A stretch of DNA of 64,000 bases from Nemertoderma westbladi (Eukaryota > Animalia > Xenacoelomorpha): positions 1-64,000 of the forward strand of contig JAUCBJ010009152.1 in the NCBI GenBank assembly GCA_032718475.1. The letters are read 5' to 3'. A program made the position numbers and the translations under genes. The notes below the pieces were generated by a model that saw only the letters and a program-made list of their open reading frames with translations, had not been told where the DNA came from and did no database searches. Position 1 is the first letter of the stretch. Each line of letters starts with the position of its first letter. This document shows, in pieces, positions 9,974 through 41,000 of the stretch.

Positions 9974-10047
9974 AGGTCAATATTGGATTTCGAACCCGCG
10001 AACTTAGGTTTCATTAACGTGATTGATAACCACTAGACTATGTGACC
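9974..10047 (-). ncRNA. tRNA-like Pol III cassette (A-box + B-box) in 3-kb unit 1
   Basis: The minus strand reads GGTCACATAGTCTAGTGG...GCGGGTTCGAAATCCAATATTGACC, with A-box TAGTCTAGTGG, B-box GGTTCGAAATCC, GGTCA/TGACC acceptor-like pairing and a downstream T-run. The anticodon arm does not pair. Confidence 0.55.
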
Positions 10048-12988: not shown

Positions 12989-13062
12989 TGGTCAATATTG
13001 GGTTTCGAACCCACGAACTTAGGTATCGTTAACGTGATTGATAACCACTAGACTACGTGACC
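12989..13062 (-). ncRNA. tRNA-like Pol III cassette in 3-kb unit 2
   Basis: GGTCACGTAGTCTAGTGGTTATCAATCACGTTAACGATACCTAAGTTCGTGGGTTCGAAACCCAATATTGACCA (74 nt), with T-arm TGGG-TTCGAAA-CCCA. Confidence 0.6.
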
Positions 13063-16002: not shown

Positions 16003-16076
16003 TGGTCAATATTGGGTTTCGAACCCACGAACTTAGGTATCGTTAACGTGATTGATAACCACTAGACTACGTGACC
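16003..16076 (-). ncRNA. tRNA-like Pol III cassette in 3-kb unit 3
   Basis: Same sequence as 12989-13062. Confidence 0.55.
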
Positions 16077-17318: not shown

Positions 17319-17418
17319 NNNNNNNNNNNNNNNNNNNNNNNNNNNNNNNNNNNNNNNNNNNNNNNNNNNNNNNNNNNNNNNNNNNNNNNNNNNNNNNNNN
17401 NNNNNNNNNNNNNNNNNN
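17319..17418. other. Assembly gap (100 N)
   Basis: A run of exactly 100 N. The flanks are non-contiguous positions of the 3-kb unit. Confidence 0.99.
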
Positions 17419-19131: not shown

Positions 19132-19771
19132 GTTCTAACTTCTGATTGATGGACTCCATATAGGAGTACTGGTTCTAACTGCTGTATGATGGACTCCATA
19201 TAGGAGTACTGGTTCTAACTGATGTATGATGGACTCCATATAGGAGTACTGGTTCTAACTGATGTATGATGGACTCCACATAGGAGTACTGGTTCTAACT
19301 TTTGTATGATGGACTCCATATAGGAGTACTGATTCTAACTGCTGTATGATGGACTCCATATAGGAGTACTGGTTCTAACTTCTGATTGATGGACTCCATA
19401 AAGGAGTACTAGTTCTAACTTCTGATTGATGGACTCCATATAGGAGTACTGGTTCTAACTGCTGTATGATGGACTCCATATAGGAGTACTGGTTCTAACT
19501 TCTCATTGATGGACTCCATATAGGAGTACTGGTTCTAACTTCCCATTGATGGACTCCATATAGGAGTACTGGTTCTAACTTCTGATTGATGGAATCCATA
19601 TACGAGTACTGGTTCTAACTGATGTATGATAGACTCCACATAGGAGTACTGGTTCTAACTTTTGTATGATGGACTCCATATAGGAGTACTGATTCTAACT
19701 GCTGTATGATGGACTCCATATAGGAGTACTGGTTCTAACTTCTGATTGATGGACTCCATAAAAGAGTACTA
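19132..19771. repeat. 40-bp satellite, 16 monomers (640 bp)
   Basis: Tandem 40-mers lying in phase between two insertions of the 3-kb element. Confidence 0.97.
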
Positions 19772-21219
19772 GGTGGGATAAATATTTCTCCATTTGACGC
19801 AACACCGCCGCGGCCGCTATGAGGGAGGTGAATACCGCGGCCGCTCCTAAAGCCGCAGGCCATCGCTAACTATATAGGTTAACTTGGGATTCTGGGGGAC
19901 TTTTCGATGAAGGAATTGACCAAATTTTTTTATTTTCTCACCAGGGGAGCGGCTCGGAATTCTAAGATATTAGCAAGTCTAACATTATTAAATCTAACCC
20001 TTCGACGGACACGGCGGACAAAAAACCGTCATTTTTTCAACAATTTTAAAATTTTTTTGAAAGGCGCTCTACAGTGGCTCGAAAAAACCCTAGGTTATTG
20101 CTTAGCCGACGCCGGGATACGATAGAAGGGATTAATTAGTGAATTCGTTTTTTTTTTCAAAAAAGATTACCACGCCTTTTTTCCGAAAATGTCCGTCAAA
20201 GTTGAAAAAACGGACAAAATGACTTTGCGGGATCCGCTATAACTCGGCTAATATTAATCGTACGGGGACGAAAGTAACGCGGTTGGAAAGAGGAAGAGTG
20301 GTACTACCTTCGTATCGAATGGGGGTAAGATATTTATTAAAATTTCGGGTGGAAAAAGGGGCTGTAAATTTGTACGTTTTTGTCCGTCTTTTTTGGAAAA
20401 CTTATTTCCGAAATGTTTAATTCGACAACGCGGGTAGGAATCCACTAATTATTTTATAAAACTCGTAGAAGACCATTGGGGCTACGTTCCTATCGAACGG
20501 GGGTACAAAAAATATGTCGGCAATAGGGGCCAAAAAGGGCCAGAATTTGTAAAGTAGTTTTTATCGAATAATTTTTTATTTTTAACTTTAGTTGGTTAAG
20601 GTACATTCTATACAGTCAATATCCATACGGGGAATTCAAATATGCTATCGGTTTTGCTCTAAGGATGATATTAAAAAAATGAGGGCCAAAATTATAATTT
20701 CGCGCTTCAAACTTGCTTCACGGGAAATCGTCTAGCTCGAAAACTACTTAACTTACGGGAGATTTGTTTACACAGACTTATAGTGCGTTAAATTATCTAT
20801 CTAACAGCGTTAATCACAGCGCCGGAGGTATTATAAAACTGGAGCGGCAGGCGATCGTGTGAAATATAATATTTATAAAAAGGGACGAAAAATTTTTTTT
20901 TTAACAAATCGCTATTCCATTATAATTAAGCGTATTGCGCCAAAAGTACCTGTAAAAAGTATCAAATTAACTCCGCTATCTTTTATCTTAACATATATAA
21001 TTAAAATTACGAATTTTAAGGGTCGAAAAATATCGCGTTATTTTGGCCCTTTTTTTAATTTTTTTGGGGCCAAAAATAACCCCTTCTCAAAAGATTAAGA
21101 AAAAAATTACGGCAAAGAATATACCAATTTTATTGAATTTGGACCACCAGAACCGAAATTAGAGCGATTTTAGTGAAAAAATAAAAATAATTTTTTTTGC
21201 AAAAAAATTAAGAATGGTC

Positions 21220-21293
21220 AGGTCAATATTGGATTTCGAACCCGCGAACTTAGGTTTCATTAACGTGATTGATAACCACTAGACTATGTGACC
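21220..21293 (-). ncRNA. tRNA-like Pol III cassette in first unit of second trimer
   Basis: A-box TAGTCTAGTGG and B-box GGTTCGAAATCC on the minus strand. Confidence 0.5.
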
Positions 21294-24233
21294 AAGAGAA
21301 TTTGAAATTTTCGAGTGACTATTTTTAAACATAAATAACTTCGGTTCTACAGGGCCGTTTAATCTGAAACTTTTTTCATTGGATAGAGGATAGATTGTAG
21401 TGTGTGAAATAGGATAAAACTTGGGAAAAGACTTATGTGCACTTAGTGCAAAATGCATTTAAATAGTGAACATTTTTTCGATATTTCAAACACTATTATT
21501 TCCAGTTCTATTCATCGTAGAATGTTATTTTTTGGATTAAAATGTAGTTTGGAATGATTTCTAACTATAATCGTAACATTTGTTTAACTTTTTATGTCTA
21601 TAAAGTGACTTAAAATGTCCATGAATATGGTCCATAATCGCAAATCCAGATTTATTAAATTGGATTTCTGACACTTTTAGCGACTGACACTTGATCATAC
21701 ACCATCGTAGATCGGTAGAGGATAAACATAAGTTTGTTAAATAAGAGCCACCATTACGATCTGCTAAAGTGCATTTGTACAAATAAGTGTGCAAAAGTGC
21801 AAATTTTTTAATAAGGTCAAATTATATAGTATTGGGTTATTTTCTTTGCAGATACTTTATTTTCATATTAATATATTGTTTGGACCTTACTGAGCGCATT
21901 AGGGATAAGTGTACAAATAACCGGCCCTTATGAGTCTTCGATTGGGTAAATTAATAAAACATAAGGTTGTATAGTATAATATTCTAAAAACCAGTGTGAT
22001 ATTAAATGCACTTTAAATAATAAATAGAAATCAAATAACAATTGGACCACACAATTAAAAACTCGCACAATTTTGTACTTATTATATCGCTTCAAATTAA
22101 TTCAACAGTGGATATTTGGGGGAAGGGGGAAGTTACAGTGTGCATTCGGGGGAAGTTTGGTGAACTGCATTTATGCAGTGAATCCAAACTTCCCCCTTTG
22201 AGATATCATATACTTAAGACATGCTAGGGTGACGGGGAAATATTTGTTACTGTCACAGTTTGCTTCCATTTATCCTATCCTTTATTATTACCCCAGTCAG
22301 ATAAGAGATAATAAATCAGTAAAAACTAAACTAAACTGTCTTTCATGCAAACAAATTTCTAACTAAAGACGGGTGAATGACCATGACCATGGAAATAATT
22401 TTAAATATAATTGTATATCAACTATTTGGGGAGGCTTCCAAGTTAAACCCGAAAACAATTATTTTGTTACATAGTAAATAACGTTGTATGTTCTTCTTCC
22501 TCTCATAATAAAATATAAATGAAATATCTCAGATCGCTATGCCCTGTAACATTTCACAACCAAAATATTTAAGTGTGAAAAGTGTAGGCCTACCACACTC
22601 CGCCCAAACAACCGCAAACGCATAGCCAACAAATTTAACAAAAGGTTACATACATGTTGGGTTCATGACGAGATGAGTGAAAATTGATCGCGTAATATAA
22701 AGTAAAAAATTAAGAGACGGGCTGGCTCTCCTCCACTTTCTTACCCAATGGATATGTTGTTGTAATAATCTAATTTTGGAGCGGCTTTCTCTCGGTGGGA
22801 TAAATATTTCTCCATTTGACGCAACACCGCCGCGGTCGCTATGAGGGAGGTGAATACCGCGGCCGCTCCTAAAGCCGCAGGCCATCGCTAACTATATAGG
22901 TTAACTTGGGATTCTGGGGGACTTTTCGATGAAGGAATTGACCAATTTTTTTTATTTTCGCACCAGGGGAGCGGCTCGGAATTCTAAGATATTAGCAACT
23001 CTAACATTAGCAAATCTATCCCCTCGACGGACACGGCGGACAAAAAACCGTCATTTTTTCGACTTTTTTAAAAAATTTTTGAAAGGCGCTCTACAGTGGC
23101 TCGAAAAAACCCTAGGTTATTGCTTAGCCGACGCCGGGATACGATAGAAGGGATTAATTAGTGAATTCGATTTTTTTTTCAAAAAAGATTACCACGCCTT
23201 TTTCCCGAAATTGTCCGTCAAAGTTGAAAAAACGGACAAAATGGCTTTGCGGGATCCACTCTAACTCGGCTAATATTAATCGTACGGGGACGAAAGTAAC
23301 GCGGCTGGAAAGGGGAAGAGTGGTACTACCTTTGTATCGAATGGGGGTAAGATATTTATTAATATTTCGGGTGTAAAAAGGGGCCGTAACTTTGTCCGTT
23401 TTTTCCATATTTTTTACATAATTAATATTTCCAAAATTTTTAATTCGACAACGCTAGTAGGAATCTGCCAATTCTTTTTCGGAAAGCGTAGAAGACCACA
23501 GGGGCTACATTCCTATCGAATGGGGGTACAAAAAATATGTAGGCAAAGGGGTCCAAAAAGGGCCAGAAAATAATAAAAAGTTTATAACTATAACAACTTT
23601 TTTATTTTAGACTCTAGAAGGTTAAAGTACATTTTATACGGTTAATATCGATACGGGGAATCCAAATATTCGATTGGTTTTGCCGCGCAAACGATATTAA
23701 AAAAATGAGGGCCCAAATTAAAATTTCACGCTTCAAACTCGCTTCGCGGGAACTCGTCTAGCTCGAAAAATACATAAGGTCTGGGAGACTTATTTAAACA
23801 GTCTTATAGAGCGTCAAATTATCTATCTTTCAACGGTAGTTACAACGCCATAGCTATTATATAACTGGAGCGGCAGACGATCGTGTGAAATATACTACTT
23901 ATAAAAAAGGGACGAAAAAATTTTTTTTTAATAAATCGCCATTACATTATAATTTAACTTTTTGCGACAAAAGTTCCTGTAAAATGTAGCAAATTAACTC
24001 CACTATCTTTTTTCTTAACATTAATAATTAAAATAACGAGTTTTAAGGGTCGAAAAATATCGTGTAATTTTGGCCCTTTTTTTTCATTTTTTTTGGGGCC
24101 AAAAGTACCCCCTCTCAAAAGATAGAAAAAAAAAATTACGGCAAAGAATATACCAATTTTATTGAATTTGGAGCACCAGAACCGAAGTTAGAGCGAATTT
24201 AGTCAAAAATTAAAAATATTTTTAAATTAAGAA

Positions 24234-24307
24234 TGGTCAATATTGGGTTTCGAACCCACGAACTTAGGTATCGTTAACGTGATTGATAACCACTAGACTA
24301 CGTGACC
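24234..24307 (-). ncRNA. tRNA-like Pol III cassette in second unit of second trimer
   Basis: Same sequence as 12989-13062. Confidence 0.55.
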
Positions 24308-27247
24308 AAGAGAATTCGAAATTTTCGAGTGATTATTTTTAAACATCAATAACTTCTGTTCTACAGGACCGTTTGATCTGAAACTTTTTTCATTGGATAG
24401 AGGATAGATTGTAGTGTGTGAAATAGGATACAACTTGGGAAAAGACGCATGTGCACTTAGTGCATAATGCACTTAAAAAGTACACATTTTTTCGATATTT
24501 TAAACACTGTTATTTCCAGTTCTATTCATCGTAGAATGTTATTTTTTGGATTAAAATGTAGTTTGGAATGATTTCTAACTATAATCGTAACATTTGTTTA
24601 ACTTTTTATGTCTATAAAGTGACTTAAAATGTCCATGAATATGGTCCATAATCGCAAATCCAGATTTATTAAATTGGATTTCTGACACTTTTAGCGACTG
24701 ACACTTGATCATACACCATCGTAGATCGGTAGAGGATAAACATAAGTTTGTTAAATAAGAGCCACCATTACGATCTGCTAAAGTGCATTTGTACAAATAA
24801 GTGTGCAAAAGTGCAAATTTTTTAATAAGGTCAAATTATATAGTATTGGGTTATTTTCTTTGCAGATACTTTATTTTCATATTAATATATTGTTTGGACC
24901 TTACTGAGCGCATTAGGGATAAGTGTACAAATAACCGGCCCTTATGAGTCTTCGATTGGGTAAATTAATAAAACATAAGGTTGTATAGTATAATATTCTA
25001 AAAACCAGTGTGATATTAAATGCACTTTAAATAATAAATAGAAATCAAATAACAATTGGACCACACAATTAAAAACTCGCACAATTTTGTACTTATTATA
25101 TCGCTTCAAATTAATTCAACAGTGGATATTTGGGGGAAGGGGGAAGTTACAGTGTGCATTCGGGGGAAGTTTGGTGAACTGCATTTATGCAGTGAATCCA
25201 AACTTCCCCCTTTGAGATATCATATACTTAAGACATGCTAGGGTGACGGGGAAATATTTGTTACTGTCACAGTTTGCTTCCATTTATCCTATCCTTTATT
25301 ATTACCCCAGTCAGATAAGAGATAATAAATCAGTAAAAACTAAACTAAACTGTCTTTCATGCAAACAAATTTCTAACTAAAGACGGGTGAATGACCATGA
25401 CCATGGAAATAATTTTAAATATAATTGTATATCAACTATTTGGGGAGGCTTCCAAGTTAAACCCGAAAACAATTATTTTGTTACATAGTAAATAACGTTG
25501 TATGTTCTTCTTCCTCTCATAATAAAATATAAATGAAATATCTCAGATCGCTATGCCCTGTAACATTTCACAACCAAAATATTTAAGTGTGAAAAGTGTA
25601 GGCCTACCACACTCCGCCCAAACAACCGCAAACGCATAGCCAACAAATTTAACAAAAGGTTACATACATGTTGGGTTCATGACGAGATGAGTGAAAATTG
25701 ATCGCGTAATATAAAGTAAAAAATTAAGAGACGGGCTGGCTCTCCTCCACTTTCTTACCCAATGGATATGTTGTTGTAATAATCTAATTTTGGAGCGGCT
25801 TTCTCTCGGTGGGATAAATATTTCTCCATTTGACGCAACACCGCCGCGGTCGCTATGAGGGAGGTGAATACCGCGGCCGCTCCTAAAGCCGCAGGCCATC
25901 GCTAACTATATAGGTTAACTTGGGATTCTGGGGGACTTTTCGATGAAGGAATTGACCAATTTTTTTTATTTTCGCACCAGGGGAGCGGCTCGGAATTCTA
26001 AGATATTAGCAACTCTAACATTAGCAAATCTATCCCCTCGACGGACACGGCGGACAAAAAACCGTCATTTTTTCGACTTTTTTAAAAAATTTTTGAAAGG
26101 CGCTCTACAGTGGCTCGAAAAAACCCTAGGTTATTGCTTAGCCGACGCCGGGATACGATAGAAGGGATTAATTAGTGAATTCGATTTTTTTTTCAAAAAA
26201 GATTACCACGCCTTTTTCCCGAAATTGTCCGTCAAAGTTGAAAAAACGGACAAAATGGCTTTGCGGGATCCACTCTAACTCGGCTAATATTAATCGTACG
26301 GGGACGAAAGTAACGCGGCTGGAAAGGGGAAGAGTGGTACTACCTTTGTATCGAATGGGGGTAAGATATTTATTAATATTTCGGGTGTAAAAAGGGGCCG
26401 TAACTTTGTCCGTTTTTTCCATATTTTTTACATAATTAATATTTCCAAAATTTTTAATTCGACAACGCTAGTAGGAATCTGCCAATTCTTTTTCGGAAAG
26501 CGTAGAAGACCACAGGGGCTACATTCCTATCGAATGGGGGTACAAAAAATATGTAGGCAAAGGGGTCCAAAAAGGGCCAGAAAATAATAAAAAGTTTATA
26601 ACTATAACAACTTTTTTATTTTAGACTCTAGAAGGTTAAAGTACATTTTATACGGTTAATATCGATACGGGGAATCCAAATATTCGATTGGTTTTGCCGC
26701 GCAAACGATATTAAAAAAATGAGGGCCCAAATTAAAATTTCACGCTTCAAACTCGCTTCGCGGGAACTCGTCTAGCTCGAAAAATACATAAGGTCTGGGA
26801 GACTTATTTAAACAGTCTTATAGAGCGTCAAATTATCTATCTTTCAACGGTAGTTACAACGCCATAGCTATTATATAACTGGAGCGGCAGACGATCGTGT
26901 GAAATATACTACTTATAAAAAAGGGACGAAAAAATTTTTTTTTAATAAATCGCCATTACATTATAATTTAACTTTTTGCGACAAAAGTTCCTGTAAAATG
27001 TAGCAAATTAACTCCACTATCTTTTTTCTTAACATTAATAATTAAAATAACGAGTTTTAAGGGTCGAAAAATATCGTGTAATTTTGGCCCTTTTTTTTCA
27101 TTTTTTTTGGGGCCAAAAGTACCCCCTCTCAAAAGATAGAAAAAAAAAATTACGGCAAAGAATATACCAATTTTATTGAATTTGGAGCACCAGAACCGAA
27201 GTTAGAGCGAATTTAGTCAAAAATTAAAAATATTTTTAAATTAAGAA

Positions 27248-27321
27248 TGGTCAATATTGGGTTTCGAACCCACGAACTTAGGTATCGTTAACGTGATTGA
27301 TAACCACTAGACTACGTGACC
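27248..27321 (-). ncRNA. tRNA-like Pol III cassette in third unit of second trimer
   Basis: Same sequence as 12989-13062. Confidence 0.55.
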
Positions 27322-28819
27322 AAGAGAATTCGAAATTTTCGAGTGATTATTTTTAAACATCAATAACTTCTGTTCTACAGGACCGTTTGATCTGAAACTT
27401 TTTTCATTGGATAGAGGATAGATTGTAGTGTGTGAAATAGGATACAACTTGGGAAAAGACGCATGTGCACTTAGTGCATAATGCACTTAAAAAGTACACA
27501 TTTTTTCGATATTTTAAACACTGTTATTTCCAGTTCTATTCATCGTAGAATGTTATTTTTTGGATTAAAATGTAGTTTGGAGTGATTTCTAACTATAATC
27601 GTAACATTTGTTTAACTTTTTATGTCTATAAAGTGACTTAAAATGTCCATGAATATGGTCCAAAATCGCAAATGTCGCGATTTATTAAATTGGATTTTTT
27701 ACACTTTTAGTGACTGACACTTGATCATACACCATCGTAGATCGGTAGAGGATAAACATAAGTTTGTTAAATAAGAACCACCATTACGATCTGCTAAAGT
27801 GCACTTGTACAAATAAATGTGCAAAAGTGCAAATTTTTTAATAAGGTCAAATTATATAGCATTGGGTTCTTTTCTTTGCAGATACTTTATTTTCATATTA
27901 ATATGTTGTTTGGCTCATACTGAGCGCATTAGGGATATGCGTACAAATAACCGGCCCTTATTAAGGCTTCGATTGGGTTAATAAATAAAACATAAGGTTG
28001 TAATATTCTAAAAAACCAGTGTGATATTAAATGCACTTTAAACAATAAATAGAGATCAATTAACAAATGGACCACACAATAAAAAACTCGCACAATTTTG
28101 TACTTATTATATCGCTTCAAATTAATTCAACAGTGGATATTTGGGGGAAGGGGGAAGTTACAGTGTGCATTCGGGGGAAGTTTGGTGAACTGCATTTATG
28201 CAGTGAATCCAAACTTCCCCCTTTGAGATATCATATACTTAAGACATGCTAGGGTGACGGGGAAATATTTGTTACTGTCACACTTTGCTTCCATTTATCC
28301 TATCCTTTATTATTACCCCAGTCAGATAAGAGATAATAATCAGTAAAAACCAAACTAAACTGTCTTTCATGCAAACAAATTTCTAACTAAAGACGGGTGA
28401 ATGACCATGACCATGGAAATAATTTTAAATATAATCGTATATCAACTATTTGGGGAGGCTTCCAAACCCAAAAACAATTATTTCGTTACATATAATATAG
28501 TAAATAACGTTGTATGTTCTTCTTCCTCTCATAATAAAATGTATATGAAATATCTCTGATCGCTGTGCCCTGAACATTTCACAACCAAAATGTTTCAGTG
28601 TGAAAAGTGTAGGCCTACCACACCCCGCCCAAACAACCGCAAACGCATAGCCAACAAATTTAACAAAAGGTTACATACATGTTGGGTTCATGACGAGATG
28701 AGTGAAAATTGAGCGCGTAATATAAAGTAAAAAATTAAGAGTCGGGCCTGGCTCTTCTCCACTTTCTTACCCAATGGAAATGTTGTTGTTTTAATCTAAT
28801 ATTGGGGCGGCTTTCTCTA

Positions 28820-29008
28820 GTTCTAACTGCTGTATGATGGACTCCATATAGGAGTACTGATTCTAACTACTGTATGATAGACTCCATATAGGAGTACTGG
28901 TTCTAACTGCTGTATGATGGACTCCATATAGGAGTACTGATTCTAACTGCTGTATGATAGACTCCATATAGGAGTACTGGCTCTAACTTCTGATTGATGG
29001 ACTCCATA
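28820..29008. repeat. 40-bp satellite remnant (~4.7 monomers) between the 3-kb trimer and the Polinton-like element
   Basis: Tandem 40-mers. The last 6 bp (TCCATA, 29003-29008) form the left TSD. Confidence 0.95.
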
Positions 29009-29347
29009 AGTAGTAGGGTCTTGGGCGGCTCTGTGACAGTTAGACCTCACTGACACCCATTGGGTGTCATATGACACCCAATTATCACCCCATGGGTGTC
29101 ATTGGGTGTCATTGGCGCCAGACTGTCTGGGTGACACCTCCCAATTAGGCTAATTAGACCCTAATTGACAGGTGTCATCAATTAATTAGTACAATTAAAC
29201 CCTAACAGGTATCATTTAGGGTTTAATTGATTATCCTAATTAATCAGACTGATTAGCGCCCTGACACACAATGGGTCATCAGTGATGTCTAACTGTCACA
29301 GAGCCGGCTCAAGAGGGTGTCATAAGTGACACCGCAGCTCTTTTATT
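29009..29347 (+). repeat. Left terminal inverted repeat (near-perfect core ~340 bp; degenerate similarity extends to ~29770)
   Basis: Reverse complement of 37689-38027. I saw one mismatch (CAGGTATCATT versus CAGGTGTCATT). Confidence 0.93.
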
Positions 29348-29781
29348 CATTAATACTTATTTATATTTAATTTTAATTAATTATTTGCATTTTATTTTAT
29401 ATTCGTATTTATTCATTTGTACTTTATTTTATATTAATTATTCATTTATACTTTATGGGTATACAGCTCCCTTACTGGTAACTAATTACTCTTATCTATA
29501 TCCAGACAGCTTTTTCGTTGACCTTTGACCTTTGACCCCTCAATTAGCTTTAACCAAGCAACAGCATATTAATGATAGTTGTATCCAAGCGCCCCTGCCC
29601 CCCACCCCGTGACAGCTCTGATTACTAATTACTCTTACATATATCCAACCGCCTGCAGTTCCATAGTCTGCCGCTAGAGGGCGTATTATCTGAAAATTAA
29701 CATCTTCTCTAACTTTGTTATTTTTCAATTTAACTATTTATATATCCAGGCAGCCCCTATCATAACAACCAGGGACCGGCA

Positions 29782-29832
29782 GGACACATGGAAACGATTT
29801 TATTACTATGAAATACATTGAAATATATTCTC
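29782..29832 (-). pseudogene. Short duplicated fragment of the TBP-like gene 3' region
   Basis: GGACACATGGAAACGATTTTATTACTATGAAATACA(T/C)TGAAATAT is also present at 30890-30934. It translates as RIYFNVFHSNKIVSMCP versus RIYIGRAYFSVFHSNKIVSMCP in the intact gene. Confidence 0.7.
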
Positions 29833-30320
29833 ACATTAACTCCCAAGGTTGCATACTATCACTATAGCTGGGAGAGTCAAAGCTAGAGTGTATGCTAGAG
29901 TTATCCAAGAGCTAGGAAAAAGAATAATGCTCTTCTAGGGTCCAAACTCACATCCATCCAATTAGAGAACTAAGCAAATGACCAGCTTGAAGGCCTTAGA
30001 CCCTTAATCTGAGGCATCGAGCAGCCAATGAGAGAGCAGATGTGAGTACAGTGGTAAAGCCCACCCATGGTGAGATAACGTCACACTAACTCTCAAGGAT
30101 AGTTATACTCACCGTTCAAATATCCCTCGCAAACCAGTTTCCCCCCAACATCTAAAGTAATCCACTTCAATGTAAAATATATAATGCAATATAACTCGAA
30201 TATTTCTGTTTTTATAATATAAATAATAATTGTAACATAAATTTATAATTTAACACAAATATAAGGTGAAAATTCACTTTAACATAGAGTAACTAAACTA
30301 AACATAAAATAGGATAAAAA

Positions 30321-30770
30321 CAGATGGTCATACTGTAGGCTCAATCCCTACTCGTGTCCGTTTTATGAAAAATATAAAAAGTAAACATAGAATAACTAGA
30401 GTACCTAAACTAAACACAAAATAGGAAAAACAGAAGGTCACGGGCTCAATCCCTACTCGTATCCCGTTTTATGGAAAATAAACAGGAGGTCATAGGTTCA
30501 ATCCCTACTCGCGACCATTATAAATCCAACACGAAATAAGTTAAACCAGGGTTCGAATCCTAATCATGAAAATATAAAAAGTAAACATAGAATAACTAGA
30601 GTAACTAAACTAGACATAAATTAGGAAAAACAGAAGGTCAGGGGTTCAATCCCTACTCGCGACCATTATAAAACCAACACAAAATAAGTTAAACCAGGGT
30701 TCGAGTCCTACTAATGCAATTATAAAAAGTAGGTAACACGGATGGTCACGGATTCAAACCCTACTCACGG
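30321..30770 (+). promoter_or_regulatory. Array of seven tRNA T-arm/B-box-like motifs interleaved with TATA boxes
   Basis: Motifs: GGCTCAATCCC (~30338, ~30443), GGTTCAATCCC (~30495, ~30643), GGGTTCGAATCC (~30549), GGGTTCGAGTCC (~30697) and GGATTCAAACCC (~30750). Two end in ...CTACTCGCGACCA. TATAAAAAG occurs at 30373, 30573 and 30721. Confidence 0.55.
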
Positions 30771-30834
30771 AAAAATAAAAACCAACACAAAATAAATAAT
30801 ATAGTAAACTTTCATGTATACCATAGTAAATAAT

Positions 30835-31350
30835 CTAATTTAATAATAAAGTTTGTAAAATAGATAATGATTCGGGGAATTCACCGGCTGGACACATGGA
30901 AACGATTTTATTACTATGAAATACACTGAAATATGCACGTCCTATATATATTCTAATCGCGCAAAATAATTCGGGGGTATAGCTAATAAATATTGCTTTA
31001 TTATTAATTGTATGATGTCCACATTTTTTCATTAATAATTTAAAATTAACACTTGGAAAAATAATAGTTTGTGTTTCGGTATTAAGTTTCAAATTTTGTA
31101 ATTGCATACCAATAGTTTGTTTTAAATAAAGCAATTCACTAGCTAAATTATTGCAAAGGCCTACAATTGTTACTGCGCCGCTGGGAAATAGCATTATAGT
31201 TGAATCGTCACCTTTGTAGATAAACATGTTTGGTTTTAAGCAACTTTGACCTGTAGTTTGCTGTGAAATTTTCTCTAGTTCAAATTTGGCAATGTTTTTT
31301 CCGGTAAACTGTTTATTGGTTATTTCTATTTTGTAGCTCAATTTCTTATT
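30835..31350 (-). CDS. Divergent TATA-box-binding protein (TBP/TFIID core)-like protein; probably a spliced terminal exon
   Basis: Two-repeat TBP pattern: STIMLFPSGAVTIVG matches TBP TTALIFSSGKMVCTG; ISYTPELFCAIRIY...FSVFHSNKIV matches SSYEPELFPGLIYR...LLIFVSGKVV; KIEITNKQFTGKNIAKFELEKIS matches [22 protein letters not shown]. The ~170-aa length fits the TBP core. The ORF-track start is TTG, and an in-frame acceptor TTTTTCTAG lies 9 nt upstream. Confidence 0.75.
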   Translation of the reverse strand, partial: NKKLSYKIEITNKQFTGKNIAKFELEKISQQTTGQSCLKPNMFIYKGDDSTIMLFPSGAVTIVGLCNNLASELLYLKQTIGMQLQNLKLNTETQTIIFPSVNFKLLMKKCGHHTINNKAIFISYTPELFCAIRIYIGRAYFSVFHSNKIVSMCPAGEFPESLSILQTLLLN

Positions 31351-31364
31351 CTAGAAAAATTAAA

Positions 31365-34300
31365 TTAAATCCTAGTAGGGGGGATTACTACTCGTTTCGC
31401 CGGTCTAACAAGCTTAGTGCTATAGTGCCCGTATGGTTTGCTGCTATATTTACTACTCCAATATGATTTCGTATCCCAGAGCGTTAGTGCCTTCTTATAG
31501 ACATGACCAGTAAAAATTTGATGCTTACTAGAAGTGAAGGTAGAGTTATAGCGGAAGAGCATTGCCTCGTTTACAAAACAGTCTGCATAATCCTCGTGTG
31601 TTAGTTGCTTAGCGACAACCGATCTAGATACACCTTTGGCGGTTTTCTTGATTGGGGCATCATAGGATTGAAAACTGTAGACCTTTGGTTTAAGGAAAAC
31701 CCACTGTTTATACTGCAAACCGCAGCTCTCATCTTTTATGAAGCCGAGAGCCGCTTTGTGTTTAATGGTATAGAGTGGATGTGTTGTACTGTAGTTGGAA
31801 GTATCTAGGAAACCACCCTCAAACATTGCCCGTAGAAAGGTTAGCTGTGGTGTATTAGTTACGCTTAGCATTAGAGAATCCGTGTCACCGGCTAGACAGC
31901 GAATCTGGCAACCCAGTTTTTGTTCTAGAGGCTTCAGTTTGTTGTAAAATAGGTCGTACATCTGTAGCTTAGATAGATCTAGTATAGTGCAACCGATGAA
32001 CACGCCCTGATTTAGGCAAACAGCCTCTTTAGTGAAAGTATGACCACTCAAGTTGGGGGTAAATACAACAAACGATTCGTGATTGGGCTTGGCTAAGAGC
32101 AAATCGCATTGTTCGTCGCTATTGCATAACCTGAAAGAAACGCGGTCTCTAACCTTTTGGAGGCATTTCCCATACAAGGCATTGTTCATCAACTTATAAA
32201 ATAGGACCTCGAATGGGTTATTTGCCGACTGTCTTTTATTGGTATTAAAACTAATGTAGTCCTTGAAAATATATTTTTGTGAGAAAGAGTAGACCCTATG
32301 TACTTGTGTAAGTTTAAGACCGAGCTTCAAATAGAGTTGAAGTAGCTTAATATGGATACCGTATTCAACCTTATTAAACTGATGTAGTAGTAGCTTAGTA
32401 CAGGTATCGTTGTATGGTCTACAGGTGGCCGTATCGGTGAGATTGTAATGCTCCCAAAGATCTTCCATGTATTCGCTAAGAAAGGATTTAGGGACTGACA
32501 TCTTCTCCGCTCCTAGAGGCAGATCGGCGGTCAAATCATGAATTTCTTTCGGGTAATGTAGATCAACTATGCAATAATAACCAGTATCCCCACTCGCGTC
32601 TACTGTAGCTAGGTCTATGGGGGTAGTTACGAGTTTAATATTAGCGTAGGGAAGTTTCTGGCTCAGGGCGCAGCCGTAAAGGTTATTCGCATCGATGGGA
32701 ATTAGATATTTCTCGGGGAGACTGGAGTCATAGTCGGGTTTATCGGGAATATTTGCGTCTACGGAATGTGTATTCAAGAATACTAGACCACCCCTAATAT
32801 TTGTTTCAAAGTCCGAGTAGATGGAAGCGTCTGATAGTAATTGAATTTCTGATTGCGTGAATTTCAGCGCCGCGTCGTAAGTTAATCCAGGGGCAGTGAA
32901 GTACATTACGGGCTCGAGTCCATAATTAGTAAGACAGAGGGATCGGAACTGCTCGAAAGTATCAGCCAATAGGGTAACATCTAGAACCAAATAGCCAATC
33001 ATATAGTCAAAGATTGTTGCGCAGTTTAATTCATCCCAAGTAGTAAGCGCGCGCTGATAGTTTTCTGCGCTACATTGTTCCAATTTGAGATCATTATAGA
33101 AGCTTTCTAATGGGGGGAGTGTAGTTTCGTGTAGGTTTGAAATATTTTGAATGTAGGAATATGGGAATACACCCTTGTTTTTTATTGTGTTATCGCTAAT
33201 GTTGGGATAGAGTTGGGTCATTTGAGCTAGTGTATGGGGTATGGCTGTTGCTAGGTTACTGTTATTTTTAGTGAGATAACTACTAAGATTATCTAGGCTG
33301 GCAGTCATAAACTGATAGGAATCTAGAAAATTAATGGAGATACTTTCTTTAGCGTTGGCTGTTGGTGTACTCGGATCGATTGGGAAGCTAACTTTAAGGT
33401 GAATATAAGTTTCGGTGTTTTTTGGTATTACGGTCATTTTCCAGTGTGTTCTAGAACTATCGGTCATTCCTTCTTTTAGTAGTAAATGCATATCGAATTT
33501 CCTCAGGTTATGAAATATAATATAAAAATTATTCCGTTTTAGGGAAAGTTTCCTGTTGCAGCTGACGCAAGCAGCCCCCCGATACTCCCCGCTATAATGA
33601 TCGTGATCGCGGACTTTGGTGCTGAGATTGTCATTGAGGTTTAAATTATGAGAATCGGGGGTTAAATTACAGTTGCAGACGTAGCATTGTGTAGCGTTAT
33701 TAAAGTCAGTTTGTTGGCTAGTAGTGAGTTGCATGGGGGCGTGCGTGTTTGTACTAGAAATGGACCAATCGTATAACTCCCTACAATGACTTTCCATAGC
33801 GGTTAGAAAGTCGCGCATTACGTGGTTACTGCCATCGTCGCGGAAAATTTGAACATCTGTTTTAGGAGGGTTAATTAATTTCTGATTTGGTACTGTATAA
33901 AAGGCTGCCGCGCTAGCTATATGTTTCTGTGGGAGTTTAATATTGTTTGTAGGTTCTAGAATAGTTTCAATGTCGGCGTATATACAGAAAGGTGGGGATA
34001 GAGTCTTATCGTACCTATCAAATTTAACCAAGAGATTTTCGGGCATATACTCGAGTTGGCGTTTACCCGTATAGCACCGCTCTCGATGTTCTTCCAATGA
34101 TTTGTCAGTGTAAAAGGCTCTGAGACAGCGTTCGCAGTGCGTCTTGTTGCCTTTAGAAGTAGCTTTAGTATTTATTAATCTATCTATGTTAGTAATAGCT
34201 ACGTAGTGGGCGGGGTTTTTGCTTGTGGCTTCGATAAATAATAAGTTTAGTACAGTTTTACCGGAACAGTGCGCGCTATCTGGTTGACTTAGGATGGAGA

Positions 34301-35420
34301 GTTCTTCCGTATTACTCCAATAAAGAAGGTTTATGCAGTATATAGGGTTGGCTTTCAGAAACTGGGGAATACCAGTTACTCTGTCCACCGGAAAACTTAA
34401 ATTCGAAAAATCAAACATGTTTAGGAAAGGAGTATAGGTTGAAATTCTTTTGATATTATTTTGTTTTCTATCAATTTTCTTATAATTTGCGGCGGCCAAA
34501 ACTGCGTATTTAAAGCATTCCCCCAGCGGGCAGTCTACGCTTACGGTACATTTTTTATTTAATAATAATTTAGAATTATTGAACCCTTGACCCTTTAAAT
34601 AGGGGTTGCGTTGGGACCGCACAATCTCAATAGTTATTCGCTCGATGGCTATTATGCGCCAACCCGAGCCGAGACAGAGAAACACGCTTAACAGTTGATC
34701 GATACGATTGACGGCGCCAGAAAACCAGTTATTAAAGTCGCTATTATTCAGAATTTGATTATTGTTACCGCTAGATTTAAAACAGAATGATTCAATTTGA
34801 AATCCCTCGCTGGTTTCACGCTCCATTACGATGTTGATTGTAAGCCAGACTCTTAAAAAAGTTCCCATGGCACTACGTAAATGGCTACTAACGTGTTCGT
34901 GAATGTGTGGAAAATTTTCATTTAATGTTAATTCTGCGTCGAGTCTTGTTTCTGTGAGGTCGTTGTTATAGGTAAACAGTCGTCCGTGTGCGCTTCCGTT
35001 AGAGGGTGGTTGAAATGGATTGTTTGGGGAAATAGAATCTCGCGAAGTTGAAGGTTCGTTATTGGAGCCGCCGCCGCCGACTTGTTCTGGAGTAGAGTTG
35101 ATGGGGGATGAGTGTGAGGTAGTCGGAGTTTTGCGTTTCCGCGAAAAAAGTCGAGTATAGCATTCATGCTCAGTAAAGGAAGATAGGGTGAGCGAATCCC
35201 CGCAGCGGCAATCGGCTGGCTCGTTTACGTAACTAAATCCTGTTCCCCCCTGAGGACACGAAACAAGATGGCCAACCAGCGTCTTCTTTTCCGAAGACCA
35301 AGTCGGACAGCAGTCGCATCTATATTGCGCGAAATGAGTTTTAATATGACGAGATAAATTATCACTCCGCGTCTCTTTGTTGCAGATGGGGCAGCTAACT
35401 TTATTGCTAGACATAGGCAT
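31365..35420 (-). CDS. polB: Protein-primed family B DNA polymerase (Polinton/adintovirus type), 1351 aa
   Basis: Exonuclease motifs IYADIET, FHNLRKFD and DVTLLAD; KGVFPY; IRGG; motif A IDANNLYG; motif B KLMNNALYGK; motif C GDTDS; KDE; KPKVY; AKGV. It also has an N-terminal C2H2 finger (CPIC...HIKTH), a GSGW motif, GECFKYAV...HY (OTU-like Cys/His) and an EndoVII/HNH-like insert (CYVC...DHDHYSGEYRGAACVSCN). Confidence 0.95.
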   Translation of the reverse strand: MPMSSNKVSCPICNKETRSDNLSRHIKTHFAQYRCDCCPTWSSEKKTLVGHLVSCPQGGTGFSYVNEPADCRCGDSLTLSSFTEHECYTRLFSRKRKTPTTSHSSPINSTPEQVGGGGSNNEPSTSRDSISPNNPFQPPSNGSAHGRLFTYNNDLTETRLDAELTLNENFPHIHEHVSSHLRSAMGTFLRVWLTINIVMERETSEGFQIESFCFKSSGNNNQILNNSDFNNWFSGAVNRIDQLLSVFLCLGSGWRIIAIERITIEIVRSQRNPYLKGQGFNNSKLLLNKKCTVSVDCPLGECFKYAVLAAANYKKIDRKQNNIKRISTYTPFLNMFDFSNLSFPVDRVTGIPQFLKANPIYCINLLYWSNTEELSILSQPDSAHCSGKTVLNLLFIEATSKNPAHYVAITNIDRLINTKATSKGNKTHCERCLRAFYTDKSLEEHRERCYTGKRQLEYMPENLLVKFDRYDKTLSPPFCIYADIETILEPTNNIKLPQKHIASAAAFYTVPNQKLINPPKTDVQIFRDDGSNHVMRDFLTAMESHCRELYDWSISSTNTHAPMQLTTSQQTDFNNATQCYVCNCNLTPDSHNLNLNDNLSTKVRDHDHYSGEYRGAACVSCNRKLSLKRNNFYIIFHNLRKFDMHLLLKEGMTDSSRTHWKMTVIPKNTETYIHLKVSFPIDPSTPTANAKESISINFLDSYQFMTASLDNLSSYLTKNNSNLATAIPHTLAQMTQLYPNISDNTIKNKGVFPYSYIQNISNLHETTLPPLESFYNDLKLEQCSAENYQRALTTWDELNCATIFDYMIGYLVLDVTLLADTFEQFRSLCLTNYGLEPVMYFTAPGLTYDAALKFTQSEIQLLSDASIYSDFETNIRGGLVFLNTHSVDANIPDKPDYDSSLPEKYLIPIDANNLYGCALSQKLPYANIKLVTTPIDLATVDASGDTGYYCIVDLHYPKEIHDLTADLPLGAEKMSVPKSFLSEYMEDLWEHYNLTDTATCRPYNDTCTKLLLHQFNKVEYGIHIKLLQLYLKLGLKLTQVHRVYSFSQKYIFKDYISFNTNKRQSANNPFEVLFYKLMNNALYGKCLQKVRDRVSFRLCNSDEQCDLLLAKPNHESFVVFTPNLSGHTFTKEAVCLNQGVFIGCTILDLSKLQMYDLFYNKLKPLEQKLGCQIRCLAGDTDSLMLSVTNTPQLTFLRAMFEGGFLDTSNYSTTHPLYTIKHKAALGFIKDESCGLQYKQWVFLKPKVYSFQSYDAPIKKTAKGVSRSVVAKQLTHEDYADCFVNEAMLFRYNSTFTSSKHQIFTGHVYKKALTLWDTKSYWSSKYSSKPYGHYSTKLVRPAKRVVIPPTRI

Positions 35421-35940
35421 CTTGAATCTAGAAAAATAAGTTGATTATTCATAAAAAAATAAAAAATACTGTATACTTGCTAAAAATAAGGTAAAACAGT
35501 AGGTATTAATCGGTTACTAGGCAACAATACTGTGTTTGTACAGTTAGGCCTATTGCTGTATTGTAGCATTCAGGCAGTGAAACATAAAGCAGACAGTCAG
35601 CAGTGTCTAGTGTAGTAGTGTTAGTGTACCAGCGGTCAGATAGTGGCGATAACCAAGACACAATAGCGATGGCAGTTATTATTCGTGGAAAGAGGGTCTA
35701 TAAACAGCAGTCAGTCAGTGCAGTAGTGCTAGTGAAATAGTCTGCCAGAAGTCAGACGTACCGGTAGCGTTAACCAATAGAAATCAACGATAGGCTTAGC
35801 TAATCGCTGTGTGAGAACTCAGTTAGTCAGTAGGATATATAATGAAAACTGCAGTATTCAGTGTTGTTCAGTAGGGTCTATATCGCTACTATGATGGCAT
35901 TAGGCTAACTCGAATGATCCGGTAGCGCTAGTTGGGTAGA

Positions 35941-36752
35941 CAAGCAGATAGACAGATGTAGGCCTATTGATCGAATGCTTCGATCACGGTTTAGGCTATC
36001 GGTACCACCACAGTCTGACAGTAATTAATAATGAGCCTACTGCAATACTGTTGTACCGGTAGACATTAAATGTAAATTGTTTGCTAGCGGCATCGATAGT
36101 ACAGTCAGATGGTGGAAGGGAAGGCAGATTTTACTTACGGTGTTAGTAAATATTCACGGAAAGAAGAAGTTTGGAAGTTTGTTGGCGATGAGGAAGTTGG
36201 TTGACGTGGACGACGAGAGAGTTTATTAACCGATAGAACGGAATGGTATCGGAAATTAGAAATAATGGAATATTACGCGACGAATACGCGGAAAGTTTGT
36301 TGTCGACAATGAGCGTTAACGCGGCGAAATTACACTAGAAAAATAAGTTGATTATTTGTAAAAAGATAAAAAATACAGTAAGCAGATAGGCGGATGTAAG
36401 CCTATTGATCGAATGCTTCGATCACGGTTTAGGCTATCGGTACCACCGCAGTCTGACAGTAATTAATAATGAGCTTACTGCAATACTGTTGTACCGGTAG
36501 ACATTAAATGTAAATTGTTTGCTAGCGGCATCGATAGTACCGTCAGATGGTGTAAGGCAGATTTTACTTACGGTGTTAGTAAATATTCACGGAAAGAAGA
36601 AGTTTGGAAGTTTGTTGGCGATGAGGAAGTTGGTTGACGTGGACGACGAGAGAGTTTATTTACCGATAGAAGGGAATGGTATCGGAAGAATATTACGCGA
36701 CGGATACACGGAAAGTTTGTTGTCGACGATGAATGATAACGCGGCGAAATGA
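35941..36752. repeat. Direct duplication of ~380-400 bp (about 35941-36334 and 36380-36752) containing putative non-coding leader exons
   Basis: Both copies contain GCCTATTGATCGAATGCTTCGATCACGG...GATTTTACTTACGGTGTTAG...GCGGCGAAAT. Minus-strand donors ACC|GTAAGT lie at 36571 and 36138; acceptors TTATTTTTCTAG lie at 36335 and 35428. Confidence 0.75.
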
Positions 36753-36939
36753 CAATAATACAACTCTACAAGTGGGTTGTTGATCGATGATAACAAATAA
36801 ATATTCTTAAATAAATAATATTAAATTCGAAAACAAAATAATGGTAAATGATGTTAATCGTAACTTGCAATTGAAATAATGACCTAATATATTAGTGGGG
36901 ATGTATTAAATAGCAATTCGGTTAGTAGGGGAGGCCCTT

Positions 36940-37030
36940 GTCTCTTAAATGAGCCAATCAGAGCGCAGCAGCAGAAATGACGCCCGCTGATTGGCTGTTC
37001 GCGCAAAAGCGGTTACCAGGGCAACTTCTC
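36940..37030 (-). promoter_or_regulatory. Candidate Pol II promoter of the element (paired CCAAT boxes, E2F-like and RFX X-box-like sites)
   Basis: AGCCAATCAG at 36952, CTGATTGGCT at 36987, TTCGCGCAAAA at 36998 and GTTACCAGGGCAAC at 37012. The cluster lies upstream of the leader exons and polB on the minus strand. Confidence 0.45.
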
Positions 37031-37688
37031 GTGTTGATTCTATATTAGAAAACTCTTGTAAGCATCTTGACTAATTATGTTGAGTTGGTTGTATAACAGA
37101 AGCAGGTCTGGTGCAAAGGAAAGGGATTAGTAGAGAGGAATGCGTGATTAGTGGCGCTTCATTGTTATGATAGGGGCTGCCTGGATATAGGAAAGGGACA
37201 AAGCGACGCCGGCTATAGTGGGAACAATGGAGGGCCGCTTGAGCATTAGCCTTGGGCGATATACGGATTTGTTGTAGTCAAGGCCGCCTGGCGCCATTGA
37301 ATAATGAAGACAAAGGGGCTGCTAACAGACGGGACCGCTCATTTATATTTGCCTTGGGGGTATACGTGTAGATTCACTGCCTGTTGTATCTAGTTAATGA
37401 ATAATGAGGACAGAGGAGGGGCCCCCCGCCGATGAACGCAGTTGATAGTTGCCAGTAGGGAGCCGTATACCATAGCCATTATAAAGTTAAAAATAGATAT
37501 TATGTCATAGTGATCTCGTTGGTAATATAAAAACTAATTAATCTAAAAATAGAAATCAATGTATAAAGTTTATACAATTAATTAATTTAAAATAAAGTAC
37601 AAATGAATAATTAATTTAAAATTAAATACAAATAAAATAAAATACAAATAATTAATTAAAATTAAATATAAATAAATAGGTATTAATA

Positions 37689-38027
37689 AATAAAAGAGCT
37701 GCGGTGTCACTTATGACACCCTCTTGAGCCGGCTCTGTGACAGTTAGACATCACTGATGACCCATTGTGTGTCAGGGCGCTAATCAGTCTGATTAATTAG
37801 GATAATCAATTAAACCCTAAATGACACCTGTTAGGGTTTAATTGTACTAATTAATTGATGACACCTGTCAATTAGGGTCTAATTAGCCTAATTGGGAGGT
37901 GTCACCCAGACAGTCTGGCGCCAATGACACCCAATGACACCCATGGGGTGATAATTGGGTGTCATATGACACCCAATGGGTGTCAGTGAGGTCTAACTGT
38001 CACAGAGCCGCCCAAGACCCTACTACT
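37689..38027 (-). repeat. Right terminal inverted repeat (core; degenerate similarity extends inward to ~37160)
   Basis: Reverse complement of 29009-29347. Confidence 0.93.
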
Positions 38028-41000
38028 TCCATATAGGAGTACTGGTTCTAACTGATGTATGATGGACTCCATATAGGAGTACTGGTTCTAACTTCTGTAT
38101 GATGGACTCCATATAGGAGTACTGGTTCTAACTTCTGATTGATGGACTCCATATAGGAGTACTGGTTCTAACTGCTGTATGATGGACTCCATATAGGAGT
38201 ACTGGTTCTAACTTCTGTATTGATGGAATCCATATAGGAGTACTGGTTCTAACTTCTGATTGATGGACTCCATAAAGGAGTACTGGTTCTAACTTCTGAT
38301 TGATGGACACAATATAGGAGTACTGGTCCTATATAGGTGTACTGATTCTAACTGCTGTATGGTGGACTCCATATAGAAGTACTGGATCTGACTGCTGTAT
38401 GATGGACTCCATATAGGAGTACTGGTTCTATCTGCTGTATGATGGACTCCATATAGGAAGGAGTACTGGTTCTAACTGCTGTATGATGGACTCCATATAG
38501 GAGTACTGGTTCTAACTTATGACTGATGGACTGACTCCATATAGGAGTACTGGTTCTAACTTCTGATTGATGGACTCCATATAGGAGTACTGGTTCTAAC
38601 TGATGTATGATGGACTCCATATAGGAGTACTGGTTCTAACTGCTGTATGATGGAATCCATATAGGAATACTGGTTCCTGGTTCTATCTGCTGATTGATGC
38701 TCCATATAGGAGTACTGGTTCTAACTGCTGTATGATGGACTCCATATAGGAGTACTGGTTCTAACAGCTGTATGATGGACTCCATATAGGAGTACTGGTT
38801 CTAACTGCTGTATGATGGACTCCATATAGGAGTACTGGTTCTAACTGCTGTATGATGGACTCCATATTGGAGTACTGGTTCTAACTTCTGATTCTGATTG
38901 ATGGACTCCATATAGGAGTACTGGTTCTAACTGCTGTATGATGGACTCCATATAGGAGTACTGGTTCTAACTGCTGTATGATGGACTCCATATAGGAGTA
39001 CTGGTTCTAACTGCTGATTGATGGACTCCATATAGGAGTACTGGTTCTAACTGCTGATTGATGGACTCCATAAAGGAGTACTGGTTCTAACTGCTGATTG
39101 AGGAGTACTGGTTCTAATTACTGTATGATGGACTCCATAAAGGAGTACTGGTTCTAACTTCTGATTGATAGACTCCATATAGGAGTACTGGTTCTCACTG
39201 CTGATTGATGAACTCCATATAGGAGTACTGATTCTAACTGCTGTATGATGGACTCCATATAGGAGTACTGGTTCTAACTGCTGTATGATGGACTCCATAT
39301 AGGAGTACTGGTTCTAACTGCTGCATGATGGACTCCATATAGAAGTACTGGTTCTAACTGCTGTATGATGGACTCCATATAGGAGTACTGATTCTAACTG
39401 CTGTATGATGGACTCCATATATGAGTTCTAACTGCTGTATGATGGACTCCATATAGGAGTACTGGTTCTAACTTTTGTATGATGGACTCCATGTAGGAGT
39501 ACTGATTCTAACTGCTGTATGATGGACTCCATATAGGAGTACTGGTTCTAACTTCTGATTGATGGACTCCATATAGGAGTACTGGTTCTAACTTCTGATT
39601 GATGGACTCCATATAGGAGTACTGGTTCTAACTGCTGTATGATGGACTCCATATAGGAGTACTGGTTCTAACTGCTGTATGATGGACTCCATATAGGAGT
39701 ACTGGTTCTAACTGCTGTATGATGGAATCCATATAGGAGTACTGGTTCCTGGTTCTATCTTCTGATTGATGCTCCATATAGGAGTACTGGTTCTAACTGC
39801 TGTATGATGGACTCCATATAGGAGTACTGGTTCTAACTGCTGTATGATGGACTCCATATTGGAGTACTGGTTCTAACTTCTGATTCTAATTGATGGACTC
39901 CATATAGGAGTACTGGTTCTAACTGCTGTATGATGGACTCCATATAGGAGTACTGGTTCTAACTGCTGTATGATGGACTCCATATAGGAGTGGACTCCAT
40001 ATAGGAGTACTGGTTCTAACTTCTGATTGATGGACTCCATAAAGGAGTACTGGTTCTAACTGCTGATTGAGGAGTACTGGTTCTAACTACTGTATGATAG
40101 ACTCCATAAAGGAGTACTGGTTCTAACTTCTGATTGATGGAGTACTGGTTCTAACTGCTGATTGATGAACTCCATATAGGAGTACTGATTCTAACTGCTG
40201 TATGATGGACTCCATATAGGAGTACTGGTTCTAACTGCTGTATGATGGACTCCATATAGGAGTACTGATTCTAACTGCTGTTTGATGGACTCCATATAGG
40301 AGTACTGGTTCTAACTGCTGTATGATGGACTCCATATAGGAGTACTGGTTCTAACTGCTGTATGATGGACTCCATATAGGAGTACTGGTTCTAACTTCTG
40401 ATTGATGGACTCCATAAAGGAGTACTAGTTCTAACTTCTGATTGATGGACTCCATATAGGAGTACTGGTTCTAACTGCTGTATGATGGACTCCATATAGG
40501 AGTACTGGTTCTAACTTCTGATTGATGGAATCCATATAGGAGTACTGGTTCTAACTTATGATTGATGGATTCCATAAAGGAGTACTGGTTCTAACTTCTG
40601 ATTGATGGACTCCATATAGGAGTACTGGTCCTATATAGGTGTACTGATTCTAACTGCTGTATGATGGTCTCCATATAGAAGTACTGGTTCTGACTGCTGT
40701 ATGATGGACTCCATATTGGAGTACTGGTTCTATCTGCTGTATGATGGACTCCATATAGGAAGGAGTACTGGTTCTAACTGCTGTATGATGGACTCCATAT
40801 AGGAGTACTGGTTCTAACTTATGATTGATGGACTGACTCCATATAGGAGTACTGGTTCTAACTTCTGATTGATAGACTCCATATAGGAGTACTGGTTCTA
40901 ACTGCTGTATGATGGACTCCATATAGGAGTACTGGTTCTAACTGCTGTATGATGGAATCCATATAGGAATACTGGTTCCTGGTTCTATCTGCTGATTGAT

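Follow-up and report, generated by a model that had tools for sequence, protein, structure and literature searches.

The window (the whole stretch of DNA analyzed here, 64 kb in length) contains a 9,019-bp element inserted in satellite DNA, whose long open reading frames (ORFs) are both on the minus strand and comprise a protein-primed B-family DNA polymerase (pPolB) and a divergent relative of the TATA-binding protein (TBP). The element, its termini, and its genes are placed as follows:

29003–29008, no strand assigned: left target site duplication (TSD), TCCATA, within a satellite monomer
29009–38027, no strand assigned: whole element, 9,019 bp, with two long ORFs only and the ends AGTAGTAG...CTACTACT
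29009–29456, plus strand: left terminal inverted repeat (TIR), the outer 330 nt of which fold as a branched hairpin (z −16.7)
29775–29826, plus strand: 52-bp copy (96%) of the 3' part of the TBP ORF (30883–30934), a rearrangement scar in the left arm
30280–30795, plus strand: degenerate tandem repeats downstream of the TBP stop, with three TATAAAAAG motifs and seven tRNA B-box-like words
30835–31350, minus strand: TBP-fold ORF, 171 codons from stop to stop, with no ATG before residue 42
31365–35420, minus strand: pPolB, 1,351 residues, uninterrupted (PF03175, E 2.3e-18)
37563–38027, minus strand: right TIR
38028–38033, no strand assigned: right TSD, TCCATA

Assignment of the element to the Polintons, which had been proposed in a first-pass annotation of the sequence, is supported by its pPolB, its long TIRs, and its 6-bp TSD (within the 5–8 bp class), features that, together with AG...CT ends, it has in common with Polintons/Mavericks as defined in the available portions of two sources (10.1101/2023.08.22.554363; PMC6431247). 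Polintons/Mavericks so defined span 13–25 kb, whereas the window element spans 9 kb and lacks the retroviral-like integrase, the protease, the packaging ATPase, and the capsid proteins. Comparison by blastx/tblastx with the ORFs of 136 fetched loci, integrases included, revealed no remnant of genes for integrase, capsid, ATPase, or protease, whether in the two non-coding arms or in the 29 kb to the left of the element. There is no further long ORF in the element besides pPolB and the TBP frame, the six short ORFs in the arms match no Pfam family, and neither the element nor its left flank contains a tRNA or Rfam family. Non-autonomous Polintons exist, and the lack of an integrase implies that the integrating enzyme must have come in trans; we infer that the element is a two-gene Polinton derivative that needs a helper for integration. 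The first-pass annotation overlooked this two-gene anatomy and the missing start codon of the TBP frame, which decide what this copy can do.

The TCCATA duplication sits inside the 40-bp satellite monomer on both flanks, confirming the insertion site in the satellite that had been proposed. The TIRs are ~450 bp long, and their outer 330 nt differ at a single position between left and right, implying a young insertion. Folded as single-stranded DNA, the outer TIR (29009–29340 and 37696–38027) is predicted to form a branched hairpin of −111.6 kcal/mol with nested palindromes; this strong hairpin is accompanied by an AT-rich inner zone. The arms hold tandem duplications and displaced fragments, and rearrangement scars are present in both; in the left arm, the 52-bp copy of the TBP ORF adjoins a 28-bp inverted copy of 37162–37189. 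The pPolB, for which 827 homologs were found, carries a C2H2 finger at its N terminus and an Endonuclease_7-like insert.

The TBP frame opens 14 nt past the pPolB stop. The interval 30835–31350 assigned to the gene in the first pass is indeed open, but its bounds are set by stops, and past the upstream one no frame has an ATG until that of residue 42, at 31227; none of 200,000 base shuffles of the frame was stop-free. The motifs on which homology to TBP had been proposed (LFPSGAVTIVG, SYTPELF, and VFHSNKIV) are present as quoted. A search of the window ORF against Pfam gave a match to PF00352 (E 4.7e-4) confined to the first repeat (residues 8–65), with a score of 20.4 bits, under the cut-off of 22.9. 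With the window protein as the query, none of 43 candidates from a word-seeded search was a true homolog, and phmmer against the PDB and a search of viral contigs gave no match; the lone phmmer match among 1.84 billion representatives was a 17-fold repeat protein, which was rejected as a repeat artefact. In the ESM Atlas, the protein scored 0.95 against TBP clusters, and its recognition value was low (1783).

The case for TBP was settled via the relatives of the neighboring polymerase, not by these single-sequence searches. When the 2,140 ORFs of 110 fetched loci, each with a related pPolB, were compared with the window protein, two matched, in loci L083 and L057 (E 2e-5 and 5e-5), the next being at 0.66. 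The ORFs of L083, L057, and L060, a locus from the same assembly as L057, clear the Pfam TBP cut-off. A four-member profile retrieved 434 proteins among 1,663 candidates, with PF00352 in all of the 120 listed; genomic context covers three loci of the family's 434 matches plus loci. Against a profile of 123 homologs, from which the window row was excluded but whose rows had earlier been aligned jointly with the window protein, the window ORF scored 52.2 bits, compared with at most 9.5 bits for 1,000 shuffles and 0.6 for the reversed sequence. The profile of all 124 rows matched solved TBPs with an E value of 2e-27.

AlphaFold applied to the 124-row alignment gave a model of the window protein with a pLDDT of 82.4, and applied to the window sequence alone, a pLDDT of 31.5; what the model captures is the family, and it does not prove that this copy folds. 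The top Foldseek matches of the model in the PDB are all TBPs (E 1e-6), viral TBP-like proteins head its BFVD listing, and VIA-align superimposed it on solved TBPs over 159 residues (Z 13.6, rmsd 3.6), the best non-TBP structure reaching Z 7.4. The proposed TBP homology is thus borne out, beyond chance, by the family profile, the alignment-based model, Foldseek, and VIA-align, with similarity to the TBP saddle found at the level of both profile and structure. The window ORF belongs to a Polinton-borne TBP family, as a genuine and highly diverged member, and modeling supports a two-repeat saddle fold for it.

L083 and L057 each retain most of a Polinton, including integrase, ATPase, and other core genes, and in L057 and L060 the TBP gene lies ~1 kb downstream of pPolB. 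The TBP genes of L083, L057, and L060 each have their own ATG, which the window frame lacks before its first strand. L057 also carries two paralogous ORFs of ~510 residues (1112–2683 and 8999–10522) with a minor-capsid-like N terminus in one element and no Pfam match.

In a FastTree phylogeny of pPolB (115 rows; 88 of the 110 loci had sufficient length for placement), the window pPolB falls in a 26-row clade (support 100) that also holds L083, L057, and L060. The TBP family was detected in 3 of the 13 loci in this clade, including 2/2 of those longer than 12 kb, the other ten being 3–9 kb long, and in none of the 97 other loci (75 placed outside the clade and 22 unplaced; 27 are longer than 12 kb). 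The view that TBP is not a standard Polinton gene therefore holds for Polintons at large (0/97) but not for this pPolB clade, in which it recurs.

A 20-row tree, with two canonical-type TBPs from the viral and prokaryote searches as the outgroup (host TBP, TRF2, and TRF3 being left out), nests the window TBP in the L083 clade (98/98) with an end branch of 3.5, compared with 0.3–0.45 for its neighbors. Approximately unbiased (AU) tests did not reject a basal placement (p 0.42), placement with the L057 clade (0.19), or placement with the two canonical-type outgroups (0.19). Whether the window TBP has accelerated depends on its placement: the nested position would mean strong acceleration, whereas in four-taxon trees the ratio of TBP to pPolB branch lengths is 2.25 for the window and 2.10 and about 2.15 for its relatives, and, in pairwise comparison, TBP distance stands in the same relation to pPolB distance as for L083 versus L057. 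Judged from these sequence comparisons, the gene appears to have been inherited from a TBP-carrying Polinton clade and not to be a one-off capture.

TBPs outside the family were also encountered. With the L083 protein as the query, viral contigs yielded 17 giant-virus-type TBP loci, all without a pPolB, and a prokaryote collection yielded one contig with a eukaryote-like TBP. The eukaryote-like TBP, at L136:1807–3516, is on a short contig in a gammaproteobacterial bin and is probably misbinned. A 16-nt TIR-end pattern had internal matches in eight viral contigs, none with a pPolB, which we took to be chance. Another Polinton, L103, encodes a divergent, unrelated TBP immediately next to a TFIIB-like gene (L103:4434–5629) with a zinc ribbon and a cyclin repeat, both under the Pfam cut-off. 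This different TBP implies that Polintons acquired TBP more than once, and the L103 pair appears to be a second, independent transcription module.

Compared with cellular and archaeal TBPs (PF00352; PDB 1cdw, 1ytb, and 2z8u), the window protein retains the two-repeat saddle at full length at 14–21% identity, with a shorter first stirrup and no N-terminal extension. Yeast TBP numbering was taken from the alignment of the 124-row profile to solved TBPs, and roles of residues follow established TBP structural work. The window protein keeps the equivalents of Asn69, Phe116, Phe190, Phe207, Glu188, and Leu189, with Asn12 at the position of Asn69 and Phe55, Phe129, and Phe144 at those of the three phenylalanines; Phe99, the first intercalating phenylalanine, is replaced by Lys39. 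The earlier observation that three of the four intercalating phenylalanines are kept and the first is absent was therefore correct. This position is lysine or arginine in 96% of the aligned family rows, making the missing first phenylalanine a family trait, and the window ORF carries the family's Lys-Pro at this position (Lys39-Pro40) along with the shortened first stirrup. Several DNA-face positions are polar family-wide, which fits a changed DNA target.

The window protein also does not keep the equivalents of Glu186, Pro191, Asn159, and two second-repeat glycines of cellular TBP, and it departs from the family as well. The TFIIB-contacting stirrup YEPELFP reads YTPELFC, with the second glutamate and the leucine kept and the first glutamate and the proline, conserved in 99% and 93% of the family, changed. 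At columns conserved to at least 70%, the window copy keeps 16/30 residues, the lowest motif retention of all members scored (median 90% and minimum 73% for the 113 members with enough coverage). At columns conserved to at least 90%, it keeps 13/20 (6/8 in the first half and 7/12 in the second), and five of the seven losses are in the second repeat, the stirrup glutamate, the proline after Phe129, and two glycines among them. Residues upstream of Met42 (Asn12, Leu25, Lys39, and Pro40) agree with the family, implying that this part was coding.

How the window genes might be expressed is suggested by the following features:

31351–31359, minus strand: splice-acceptor-like TTTTTCTAG, a putative acceptor directly before the TBP frame and 5 nt past the pPolB stop
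35428–35436, minus strand: acceptor-like TTTTTCTAG, 7 nt before the pPolB ATG
36139–36343, minus strand: candidate leader exon without ATG, with an acceptor-like sequence at 36335–36343 and a donor-like GTAAGT at 36138
36942–36994, minus strand: candidate Pol II promoter, proposed from consensus only, with two opposed CCAAT boxes and TTTAAGAG

TTTTTCTAG occurs three times in the 64 kb, each time ahead of an open frame and on the element's minus strand (chance expectation 0.8; 3/100 shuffles reach three). One of the three precedes a 196-nt segment ending at GTAAGT, and two of the three are within related 46-nt copies. The leader-exon candidate is within a ~430-bp tandem duplication, the upstream copy of which has its donor-like site at 36571, and the candidate leader exons contain no ATG. 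These motifs suggest one promoter and an untranslated leader spliced to either gene. A flatworm-type spliced leader with a terminal AUG would suit the TBP frame but was not adopted, given that the right arm has donor-like sites, which favor splicing in cis. AATAAA words occur inside the TBP ORF at 31317, 31002, and 30912 (minus strand); the one at 31317, ~50 nt past the pPolB stop, could end the pPolB transcript, in which case a TBP transcript would need to read through it.

A shared box was sought upstream of the genes of the two long relatives, L083 and L057. CATAAAC is located within 110 nt upstream of 7 of the 13 genes of L083 (background 3%), and TTAAGC within the same distance of 7 of the 14 genes of L057 (background 4.5%); both were picked post hoc from the same data, with P values of ~8e-4 and 4e-3 after correction for all words of the same length. 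The box-bearing genes include those for integrase, ATPase, and capsid-module proteins, neither box precedes TBP or pPolB in the two loci, and each box is rare before the genes of the other locus (2/13 and 0/14). The pairing of box with TBP is a correlation across two loci.

The best reading is that the family provides a private late-promoter factor that would redirect Pol II to element promoters, a proposal based on two subclades with two boxes, the TBP–TFIIB pair of L103, and the precedent of KSHV ORF24. Redirection of Pol II, one of the roles put forward in the first pass, thus stands as the best reading for the family, but neither box is present in the non-coding arms of the window element. 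In this clade, the TBP gene would likely give the element a factor of its own for reading the promoters of its capsid, packaging, and integrase genes. In complete relatives, a saddle with lysine or arginine for the first phenylalanine and a polar DNA face may bind a lineage-specific non-canonical box, and the second-repeat stirrup may recruit host Pol II. For KSHV it is established, according to the part of PMC12529657 consulted, that viral TBP mimics with a polar interface read late promoters, and the proposed late-promoter role is likened to theirs. The window protein resembles the beta- and gammaherpesvirus mimics, as described there, and the giant-virus TBPs in BFVD in being a virus-encoded TBP fold with a polar DNA face; KSHV ORF24, in contrast, is large and multidomain and belongs to a complex of six proteins, whereas the window protein is a bare 171-residue saddle in an element without a partner gene.

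The window element would then be what remains after loss of the late module, with the early module (pPolB and TBP) retained. A single right-arm promoter is predicted to drive both genes, with the ATG-free leader alternatively spliced to the acceptors before pPolB and TBP. Translation of the TBP exon might begin at a non-AUG codon, in an upstream exon, or at Met42, giving a 130-residue product without the first strand and helix, or this copy may have lost its start. With no late genes in cis and no relative's box in its arms, the window TBP could act only in trans on partner elements or on its own promoter, or is fading. A promoter role for the family, with this copy as a retained early-module gene, is the reading that we moderately favor; whether the copy still makes a working protein is close to an even call.

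The alternative that survives best, possible but on balance doubtful, is that the gene is a decaying passenger that worked in an autonomous ancestor, lost its targets with the late module and then its start codon, and is now drifting. The lack of an ATG before residue 42 and in the candidate leader exons, the lowest motif retention in the family, the 3.5 end branch inside the L083 clade, and the rearrangement scars in both arms are as expected for decay, and the near-identical outer TIRs imply that stops have had little time to accumulate; on this reading, the frame is still open because the insertion is young. However, ~80% amino acid divergence from every homolog without a stop or frameshift cannot be neutral, given that no shuffle of the frame stayed open; TBP distance tracks pPolB distance as between L083 and L057, and the acceptor-like motif is intact and in frame.

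Alternatively, the protein may be a re-purposed DNA-binding factor, kept for binding the AT-rich inner TIR or its own promoter and so aiding protein-primed replication or regulating pPolB. TBP is the sole gene retained alongside pPolB, its stirrup is altered while three phenylalanines, Asn12, and a basic pI of 9.3 are kept, and the TIRs offer an AT-rich inner zone and a strong hairpin. Adjacency could, however, explain the retention, since in L057 and L060 the gene likewise follows pPolB at a distance of 1 kb, and no shared motif was found; we consider this reading improbable. A split Polinton, in which the 9-kb element is a self-copying early half that supplies polymerase and a private TBP, alternatively spliced from one promoter, and in which a partner element's integrase and capsids depend on that TBP, is an equally speculative proposal.

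It is very unlikely that the protein is a dominant-negative decoy that titrates host factors or an integration tether to TATA-like DNA such as the satellite CCATATAGG: insertion at TCCATA in an AT-centered satellite motif and the altered partner-binding stirrup would be in keeping with such roles, but a decoy requires intact partner surfaces, which are those most changed here, and tethering, suggested in the first pass, is unsupported for an element with no integrase and a single insertion, the site needing no targeting where satellite occupies ~32.6 of the 64 kb, about half of the window. A separate acquisition by this element of a TBP from the host or a giant virus, which the AU test would tolerate (grouping with the two canonical-type TBPs, p 0.19) and for which L103 shows that Polintons capture TBP repeatedly, is scarcely credible given the family Lys-Pro and shortened first stirrup, a score of 52 bits on the family profile compared with 20 on Pfam TBP, and a pPolB in the same clade as those of the family's carriers.

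A gene of this type is already labeled in print, which limits the surprise: the available part of Starrett et al. (2021) (PMC8502044, Figure 5 legend; bioRxiv 10.1101/697771) applies the label TBP in MELD viruses with an adintovirus-like PolB. In both cases, a Polinton-like element whose PolB is of this kind carries a TBP-like gene; the legend gives the label without a family, residues, a promoter box, or a minimal element, and one supplement file of the same paper contained no TBP match. The portions of PMC12220804, 10.64898/2026.10.13.758929, and 10.1101/2024.01.15.575659 that were consulted held nothing relevant. In the literature covered, with most subscription papers outside its scope, we found no paper characterizing a Polinton TBP family or a minimal element of pPolB plus TBP.

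The family bears on when Polintons express their capsid and integrase genes. Its association with a single pPolB clade and the distinct upstream box of each TBP subclade allow a direct test of whether each protein reads its own box. If the late-promoter reading is true, no smaller viral late-transcription switch would be known, and the family would offer a natural case for studying how TBP-saddle specificity shifts once an intercalating phenylalanine is lost. The window copy is a boundary case, a helper-dependent two-gene element that keeps the factor after losing its presumed targets, and comparison of sibling copies would separate a late-gene activator from a replication or autoregulation factor.

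Outside the genes, the repeats at 30280–30795 (plus strand) comprise five copies in which an AGGTCA-like word precedes a tRNA T-arm/B-box-like word, with perfect B-box words at 30550 and 30698; with no tRNA or Rfam match, we did not accept them as Pol III genes. The three TATAAAAAG motifs singled out earlier as candidate binding sites (30373, 30573, and 30721) are present, but as copies within this one degenerate repeat and not as independent sites, and three more copies are in flanking host repeats. Satellite arrays of the 40-bp monomer extend over 2762–8524 and 38028–64000, with higher-order blocks repeated at about 4016, 39934, and 57420. A non-coding tandem unit of ~3.0 kb, each copy with a tRNA-like word on the minus strand, occupies 8523–19132 and 19769–28818, and lies within a duplication of 11.2 kb (98.9% identical) that also takes in satellite. 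Positions 29654–29683 (plus strand), just inside the left TIR, closely match an extended CTCF motif (upstream module and core); the core match is the only one in the 64 kb, by patterns written after seeing the site, and the CTCF-like site could insulate the element from the satellite array.
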